Of a stretch of DNA of 32,000 bases, positions 31,657 to 32,000 are shown one piece after another. The notes under the pieces are model-generated. The model ran no database searches and was not told the DNA's origin. It saw only the letters and a program-made list of their open reading frames with translations. Numbering within the stretch: position 1 is the stretch's first letter; each line of letters starts with the position of its first letter. The stretch is from Okeania sp. (lineage in GTDB: Bacteria; Cyanobacteriota; Cyanobacteriia; Cyanobacteriales; Microcoleaceae), in assembly GCF_035285525.1 (NCBI RefSeq), contig NZ_JAYKGW010000013.1, positions 3,387 to 35,386 on the forward strand, read 5' to 3'. Made by a program: the position numbers and the translations under genes.

Positions 31657-31873
31657 ATGGAGACAGCTATTTCATCAATCCGCGCCAGAGAAATTCTTGA
31701 TTCTCGTGGTCGTCCAACTGTAGAAGCAGAAGTACACCTAGCTAATGGGATTATGGGATTAGCCCAAGTGCCCAGTGGTGCATCAACAGGTAGTTTTGAA
31801 GCTCACGAACTTAGAGACGGAGATAAAAGACGGTACAATGGCAAAGGGGTACTCACAGCGGTCAAAAATGTAG
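31657..31873 (+). CDS. eno: Enolase, first 72 codons (exon 1, or a truncated 5' fragment)
   Basis: [72 protein letters not shown] is the canonical enolase N-terminal domain. Similarity ends at 31873, and the track ORF stops 6 codons later. Confidence 0.9.
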
Positions 31874-32000
31874 GTGCGACTTGTTCCTATTAAGAGCCTC
31901 TAGAAACTAGAGGGGTATGAATAGGGTCCAACGAGGTCGCGGAGAAAGAGCCTATAGAGCTATTTGTTATATGAGGCCACCAAAGAAGAACCTGTTGGAT
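31874..32000 (+). mobile_element. Candidate 5' end of a group II intron inserted in eno (continues beyond the window)
   Basis: It starts GTGCG (GUGYG consensus). GCGACUUGUUCCUAUU can pair with AAUAGGGUCCAACGAGGUCGC around a perfect CCUCUAG-AAA-CUAGAGG hairpin. Only 127 nt are visible, and no domain V/VI or RT ORF is in the window. Confidence 0.45.

Follow-up and report, generated by a model that had tools for sequence, protein, structure and literature searches.

A putative group II intron 5' end within codon 73 of an enolase gene from the Trichodesmium group

The 32,000-nucleotide stretch of DNA analyzed in this study (the window; ~35% G+C) ended within an enolase gene (eno) that was interrupted precisely between bases 1 and 2 of codon 73. 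Comparison with related sequences indicated that the bases that follow the interruption, 31874-32000, are most likely the opening 127 nt of a group II intron. Every feature of group II membership that could be looked for within the window was found, namely the 5' boundary, the 5' elements of domain I, and the strand. The features on which this finding is based are listed in Table 1.

Table 1. Features of the interrupted enolase gene and of the putative intron 5' end (window coordinates)
Feature	Coordinates	Strand	Description	Basis
eno exon 1	31657..31873	+	ATG start, 72 complete codons and G, base 1 of codon 73 (GAA, Glu, in relatives)	Translation and homology
GUGCG 5' splice-site consensus	31874..31878	+	First intron nucleotides; aligned to positions 1-5 of nine related introns, columns invariant	Direct reading
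5' strand of the domain-I closing helix I(i)	31879..31885	+	ACUUGUU (family consensus RYUCGUU)	Pairing and covariation in relatives
Stem-loop IA	31886..31925	+	CCUAUU/AAUAGG (31886-31891 with 31920-31925), 7-bp hairpin, conserved GGUAUG	Covariance model R1, blastn
TAA stop of the unspliced frame	31891..31893	+	18 nt into the intron	ORF list
Segment AACGAGGUCGCG	31930..31941	+	Complementary to intron nt 2-12; outer part of the long helix, excludes the IB fold	MFE fold
Candidate extended IB hairpin	31926..32000	+	GUCCAAC.GAGGUC ... GAACC.UGUUGGAU; adjoins IA as in relatives; sequence homology undetectable	Fold

The interrupted gene and the empty site in its relatives

The final 344 bases of the window contained the eno open reading frame (ORF; 31657..31893, 78 aa). 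Residues 1-72 formed an enolase N-terminus with 89% identity to Okeania and 92% identity to Trichodesmium sp. MAG_R03, in which both the SGASTG loop and the RDGDK motif were intact. After residue 72, where relatives continued as ...TAVKNV-EEQITPNL, the window read G/GTGCGACTTGTTCCTATTAA (a slash marks the junction throughout), translated as GATCSY followed by a stop. A preliminary description of this DNA had reported a frame that was clean for 72 codons, switched one nucleotide into codon 73, and stopped six codons later, and both its coordinates and its wording were correct.

The order of a panC/cmk fusion, a polysaccharide deacetylase, an ABC permease, and eno was common to the window, T. 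erythraeum IMS101 (L102), and Trichodesmium sp. MAG_R03 (L001), with the window genes showing 85-87% nucleotide identity to those of IMS101 and MAG_R03. Exon 1 was conserved no less than these neighboring genes, at 88% nucleotide identity to IMS101 and to MAG_R03. No frameshifts or stops were present, dN/dS against MAG_R03 was 0.11, and every substitution fell at a variable position. As IMS101 and MAG_R03 were 95% identical to each other over the same exon, the sequence of exon 1 placed the source lineage, by this measure, as an outlier within the Trichodesmium group that is distinct from IMS101.

Homology in blastn to MAG_R03 (L001 10217) and to IMS101 (L102 10217) stopped in both cases exactly at window position 31873, and both relatives then read on without interruption through GTAG/AAGAACAAATTAC (GTAG/AAGAAC), indicating that the insertion was precise. 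The enolase of IMS101 was intact, at 428 aa (P0328). An interruption at codon 72/73 was found in none of 80 cyanobacterial eno loci and in none of 120 full-length enolases of the Trichodesmium/Okeania/Dapis clade, and a degenerate pattern of eno codons 62-72 followed by GTGYG had no match in 241 million metagenome records. With this codon uninterrupted in all other eno genes examined, the insertion was specific to the source lineage, absent from IMS101, MAG_R03, and ~200 other eno genes, and this specificity implied that it is evolutionarily recent.

No continuation of eno was found within 31874-32000. A resumption of the gene at AAGAAGAAC (31983-31991) was considered and rejected, as the bases after this string mismatched eno. 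Protein searches with exon-2-like queries returned no exon-2-only enolase of the source lineage.

Several other features of the window were observed outside the insert. The spacer upstream of eno (28900-31650) measured 2.7 kb, compared with ~1.3 kb in MAG_R03, and contained several short repeat families, including direct repeats (29140-29260 and 30920-31047), a 76-nt inverted pair (29414-29489/30655-30730), and a further pair of copies (30749-30784/31147-31182); no intron sequence was found among these spacer repeats. The gap between the deacetylase and the ABC permease (23650-27110) was ~3.5 kb in the window, ~165 bp in MAG_R03, and ~1.2 kb in IMS101, and its extra DNA included an LCM-type methyltransferase gene (24867-25679). 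On the minus strand, a 96-aa ORF (15701-15991) repeated the N-terminus of the neighboring purN (14772-15428, also on the minus strand) over ~65 residues (PLKLGILASGNGSNFEVIAEAINNQKLNAQIQ...) and then broke off; it resembles a partial tandem duplication or a fragment of a pseudogene.

Breaks in eno were also seen in three fragments from other sources. A TARA scaffold (L106; ENA ERZ28656067, scaffold_400572; 216-525) carried a Trichodesmium eno exon with 95% nucleotide identity to IMS101, in which eno homology was lost after ...AAAAACGTA, one base upstream of the junction in the window. Its 95-nt tail (AGGCCCGTCCGTGAGTAAAAAATCGGC...) was strongly palindromic (-33 kcal/mol), did not begin with GTGCG, and was unrelated to the window insert; it could be a second element at the same codon or the product of a chimeric scaffold. 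A Logan contig (L105; SRR29022251 contig 3730; 1-60) carried a 3' part of Trichodesmium eno with 95.5% nucleotide identity to IMS101, preceded at ~codon 265 by 44 nt that did not belong to eno, with ...GAATCTACGTA/AATTAATTG at the boundary and MGLPLTNLRK-LIDYL... as the called protein. This boundary may mark the 3' end of a further insertion or intron within the gene. In a JGI scaffold (L104; 3300056812 Ga0562380_03868; 6001-6472), a cyanobacterial eno was truncated after ~codon 70 (P0008, 80 aa, seven cluster members) and was followed by tandem GGTTGAGTTTGTAGG-like repeats with no intron start.

The insert and its relatives among group II introns

The insert started with GTGCGAC... at 31874, one base into codon 73, and 127 nt of it were visible before the window ended at base 32000. 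The match to introns and eno were on the same strand (+), which is the spliceable orientation. When the 127 nt were compared by blastn with 7.3 Gb of plasmid sequence, the sole meaningful match, which was also the best, was that of nt 1-58 to an intron on plasmid2 of Aulosira laxa NIES-50 (L082; E 1e-5, 81% identity). The Aulosira intron began with GTGCG directly after a truncated host ORF, carried its own ORF of 521 aa with RVT_N, RVT_1 (YADD), and GIIM domains starting 585 nt in, some 530 nt downstream of the match, and had an RF00029 domain V/VI match (46.5 bits) 3' of that ORF.

A covariance model (R1) was built from the first ~97 nt of five related introns, with the window left out and the consensus structure taken from RNAalifold. 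With filters off, R1 matched the window at 31874-31974 from model position 1, with a score of 50.4 bits and an E value of 3.8e-10, while the second-best score over the 64 kb of strand searched in the window was 12.6 bits. In 1.33 Mb of other cyanobacterial DNA, R1 had no match at E <= 0.1. The preliminary description had taken GTGCG as the start of a group II intron that breaks eno. This reading, with the intron in the sense orientation, was supported by the empty site in relatives, the blastn match to an intron 5' end, the R1 match, and the covariation in stem-loop IA described below.

Demonstrable homology to introns covered nt 1-53 only. Nucleotides 54-127 had no significant similarity to any relative, with pairwise scores at noise level. 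They were compared both as a collinear IB/IC region and as the I(i)-3'/domain II region that would follow a deletion in domain I, and the scores were at noise level in both cases. The Rfam search suggested in the preliminary description, with RF00029 and domain I models, yielded no match; neither RF00029 nor group-II-D1D4 was found in the window at the gathering threshold or in 31600-32000 at E <= 10. This blank result was uninformative, as the 5' parts of bona fide relatives matched no Rfam model either. For RF00029, a blank was to be anticipated with a 5' piece of 127 nt. In complete relatives, the Rfam match was confined to domain V/VI at the 3' end, with no D1D4 match at the gathering threshold.

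No other copy or partial copy of the insert was present in the 32-kb window, and the insert was not among the repeats upstream of eno, in agreement with the earlier view that it belonged to none of the MITE families of this DNA. When the first 25 nt of the intron were sought as an exact string, neither the 185,579 species genomes nor the 241 M metagenome records contained them. Pattern scans of viral contigs for sequence past base 32000 likewise gave no match, the neighboring 157-aa ORF had no exact-protein record, and no second copy of this intron was found in any collection searched.

The intron family with this 5' region occurred on plasmids of Nostocales and Oscillatoriales, and its members encoded proteins with RVT_N, RVT_1 (YADD), and GIIM domains plus an HNH-like C-terminus. 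Of 11 plasmid relatives with this 5' region, seven also had domain V/VI and four lacked it in the span examined; truncation or disruption affected about one third of those whose 5' end was intact (e.g., L092, L090, and L087). EBS1 and EBS2 in the relatives lay beyond intron nt ~200. A scan of viral contigs based on the IEP recovered one close relative, which was without its 5' ribozyme. The RT/maturase of the nearest complete relative matched the RT of the Thermosynechococcus TeI4h maturase (PDB 6ME0) at E 7.8e-72, and TeI4h is a CL/IIB1 intron (PMC2882425). By proxy only, through the IEPs of its complete relatives, the window element may belong to a CL/IIB1-type lineage.

A further observation concerned pCC7120alpha of Nostoc sp. 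PCC 7120 (L084, NC_003276.1; 3001-6178), in which a second R1 match was found at 3970-4059 (26.3 bits, starting GTGCGATTCGTT). This second 5' end lay ~970 nt into the first intron, with the RT ORF downstream of it, and would represent a nested, twintron-like arrangement.

Conserved and alternative folds of the visible 127 nt

In the relatives, (C/U)UCGUU at nt 7-12 paired with GGAACGA(G/A)UAAAAAC located ~400-460 nt downstream, closing domain I, and the C/U position covaried with the G/A position. By analogy, the I(i) partner strand of the window intron would fall beyond base 32000. The adjoining stem-loop IA was visible in full and contained the perfect 7-bp hairpin (CCTCTAG-AAA-CTAGAGG) noted in the preliminary description, which was found at 31897-31913. 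The basal stem of IA was 100% paired across eight sequences, with changes on both sides in five of its six pairs; these counts were taken from a model-fitted alignment and were thus biased towards the structure, and the same compensations were present in a plain MAFFT alignment. Its variants included CCUAUU/AAUAGG in the window, UCUAGC/GCUAGA in Aulosira, and CUUGCU/AGCAAG in Nostoc 7120.

The minimum free energy (MFE) fold of 31874-32000 reached -36.7 kcal/mol (z -2.5), with 2 of 200 shuffles as good. The long irregular helix described earlier was present in this fold, and its inner part corresponded to the conserved IA. The helix did not hold as a single unit; its outer part (GCGACUUG/CGAGGUCGC) was unconserved and at chance level. 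The duplex energy of this outer helix, -11.9 kcal/mol, was reached by 114 of 2000 shuffles (5.7%), and eight relatives had no counterpart to it (-3.9 to -10.0 kcal/mol). We therefore rejected the outer helix as a significant structure. As nt 7-12 of the relatives pair ~400-450 nt downstream, this local helix probably reflects either chance pairing or an alternative fold.

A second arrangement resembled that of the family more closely in position. When nt 1-12 were forced to remain single-stranded, a requirement of the canonical architecture, the 127 nt folded at -36.4 kcal/mol, close to the MFE of -36.7 kcal/mol, as IA followed by a 75-nt hairpin. Folded alone, this IB candidate reached -20 kcal/mol (z -2.5), with 3 of 200 shuffles as good. 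It occupied the position of IB in the family, and its first two pairs were G.U and U-A, like those of the family IB. In the energy model, the visible sequence could thus adopt two mutually exclusive folds of nearly equal stability, one in which the 5' splice site would be sequestered and one composed of IA and IB. That this alternation could serve as a built-in conformational switch, through which a maturase, temperature, or a ligand would gate splicing and thereby the output of enolase, is a highly speculative suggestion to which we give little credence.

Fate of the interrupted gene and comparison with known introns

We considered the likeliest reading, with fair but not high probability, to be an enolase whose synthesis depends on the splicing of a complete intron. 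A group II intron of the CL/IIB type would have reverse-spliced into the sense strand of the syntenic orthologous eno, at GTAG/AAGAAC. The element would continue past base 32000 as a complete ribozyme, comprising the rest of domain I, including EBS1 and EBS2, and domains II-VI, and it may or may not carry an RT/maturase ORF of its own; many cyanobacterial introns have none. EBS1 and EBS2 would be complementary to the end of exon 1, ...GGTCAAAAATGTAG (IBS1/IBS2, the last ~12 nt). Co-transcribed with eno, the intron would be spliced out, either by self-catalysis or with the assistance of a maturase acting in cis or in trans, and ...AAAAAUGUAG would be joined to AAGAA..., restoring GAA (Glu73). 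Synthesis of enolase would accordingly depend on splicing by the ribozyme, probably aided by a maturase.

Support for this reading was indirect. Enolase is usually single-copy and indispensable, and the interrupted gene was the syntenic orthologue of this gene, with the intron in the spliceable orientation and its 5' end complete to G1. Further indirect support was provided by the lesion-free exon 1, the precedent in Trichodesmium, the clade in which spliced introns of housekeeping genes are best documented, and the presence of domain V/VI in 7 of 11 relatives.

An appreciably less likely alternative, which we regard as possible but doubtful, was that the gene is dead. The insert would then be a 5' fragment, or a deleted or rearranged intron unable to splice, leaving eno a pseudogene and enolase either supplied by another copy or lost. 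The end of intron homology at nt 53 pointed in this direction, and AACGAG at nt 57-62 was identical to the I(i) 3' strand of the family, normally found ~400 nt further on, which fits a deletion of most of domain I. Nucleotides 54-127, however, matched the D2 region of the family no better than the IB region, they folded as a hairpin where IB belongs, and the complementarity that hinted at a closed mini domain I was within chance. A dead gene would also be consistent with the 4 of 11 plasmid relatives in which domain V/VI was missing from the span examined, with the lack of a recorded exon-2 product of the source lineage, and with a region containing repeat expansions and a duplicated purN fragment, so that pseudogenes do occur here. 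Against it stood the position of the locus as the syntenic orthologue of a gene that is normally single-copy and indispensable, and an exon 1 with a low dN/dS and substitutions restricted to variable positions.

An assembly artefact or minority allele, in which an intron from another part of the genome became attached to exon 1 or only part of the sequenced population carries the intron, was judged very unlikely. In its favor, the 78-aa unspliced ORF had no exact-protein record, and other proteins of the window, the ABC permease and the LCM methyltransferase, had exact matches only on short Logan contigs (1.0-1.6 kb) of run SRR19514071. The join, however, fell exactly at intron G1 and exactly where relatives continue, which is unexpected for a random chimera, and an intron start at the breakpoint of the host gene is the product of reverse splicing. 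The idea that the insert is no intron at all and instead a MITE, an IS end, or another hairpin repeat starting with GTGCG by chance can draw on the short repeats upstream of eno, the folding of the insert as a long hairpin, and the truncation of two other eno fragments (L104 and L106) near the same codon by repeat-like, non-intron DNA, yet it was rendered exceedingly improbable by the lack of a full or partial second copy in 32 kb, the unmatched 25-mer among genomes and metagenome records, an R1 match (E ~4e-10) that started at the first intron position and was accompanied by compensatory changes, and the failure of eno to resume after the hairpin.

A complete intron would make lower glycolysis and gluconeogenesis dependent on RNA splicing in this lineage, and possibly on a maturase encoded elsewhere, and the list of essential genes split by retroelements in Trichodesmium-type genomes would be longer. 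As a recent insertion, it would suit the study of how mobile introns become established in core genes. A truncated intron would instead mean that a gene for a core enzyme has been lost or replaced while the genome decays. To a specialist the finding would be interesting and unsurprising, and its value is incremental either way, as the kind of element is well known.

In T. erythraeum IMS101, 17 spliced group II introns have been reported in 10 host genes, with 10 of the 17 being ORF-less (PMC4143802, PMC4649490); the host genes include apcD, nrdJ, dnaN, thyX, IMP dehydrogenase, and gvpA. Group II introns are uncommon in housekeeping genes and Trichodesmium is an exception (PMC4143802, PMC2882425), as the preliminary description had correctly stated. 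The literature searched contained no report linking a group II intron, enolase, and Trichodesmium, and, judging from titles and abstracts, none of the papers combining group II introns, enolase, and cyanobacteria appears to report such an intron. Enolase is thus a new host gene and this copy is new and lineage-specific, while the kind of element is known and was found in a clade known for such introns.

A close parallel is provided by the introns of IMS101, which belong to the same clade and likewise lie on the sense strand within conserved protein genes whose function requires splicing; enolase is absent from the reported IMS101 host genes (PMC4143802), and the IMS101 eno is uninterrupted. 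The pseudogenes created by MITE or IS insertion in Trichodesmium-type genomes similarly involve a conserved gene interrupted in a repeat-rich genome. In contrast to these, the window insert was single-copy, lacked terminal inverted repeats and any pattern of target duplication, and matched intron domain I significantly.

In sequence and structure, the insert most resembled the plasmid introns of Nostocales, such as those of Aulosira laxa NIES-50 plasmid2 (AP018309.1, 205869..~203520) and plasmid1 (AP018308.1), Nostoc PCC 7120 pCC7120alpha (NC_003276.1, from 258243), Nostoc ATCC 53789 pNsp_a, and Nostoc UHCC 0302. GUGCG, the I(i) 5' strand RYU(C/U)GUU, an IA with the same inner hairpin, and GGUAUG were common to both, and a hairpin directly followed IA in both. 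The IB hairpin differed, with a 75-nt candidate in the window compared with ~33 nt of dissimilar sequence in the plasmid introns, and so did the host site, which was a chromosomal housekeeping gene in the window and plasmid genes of hypothetical function in the Nostocales. Among the CL/IIB1 introns TeI4 and TeI3 of Thermosynechococcus elongatus, TeI4h has a maturase like those of the nearest complete relatives of the window intron, and the TeI introns include ORF-less copies that are spliced by maturases supplied in trans (PMC2882425). Almost all TeI introns lie outside genes (PMC2882425), whereas the window intron interrupts a gene of core metabolism.
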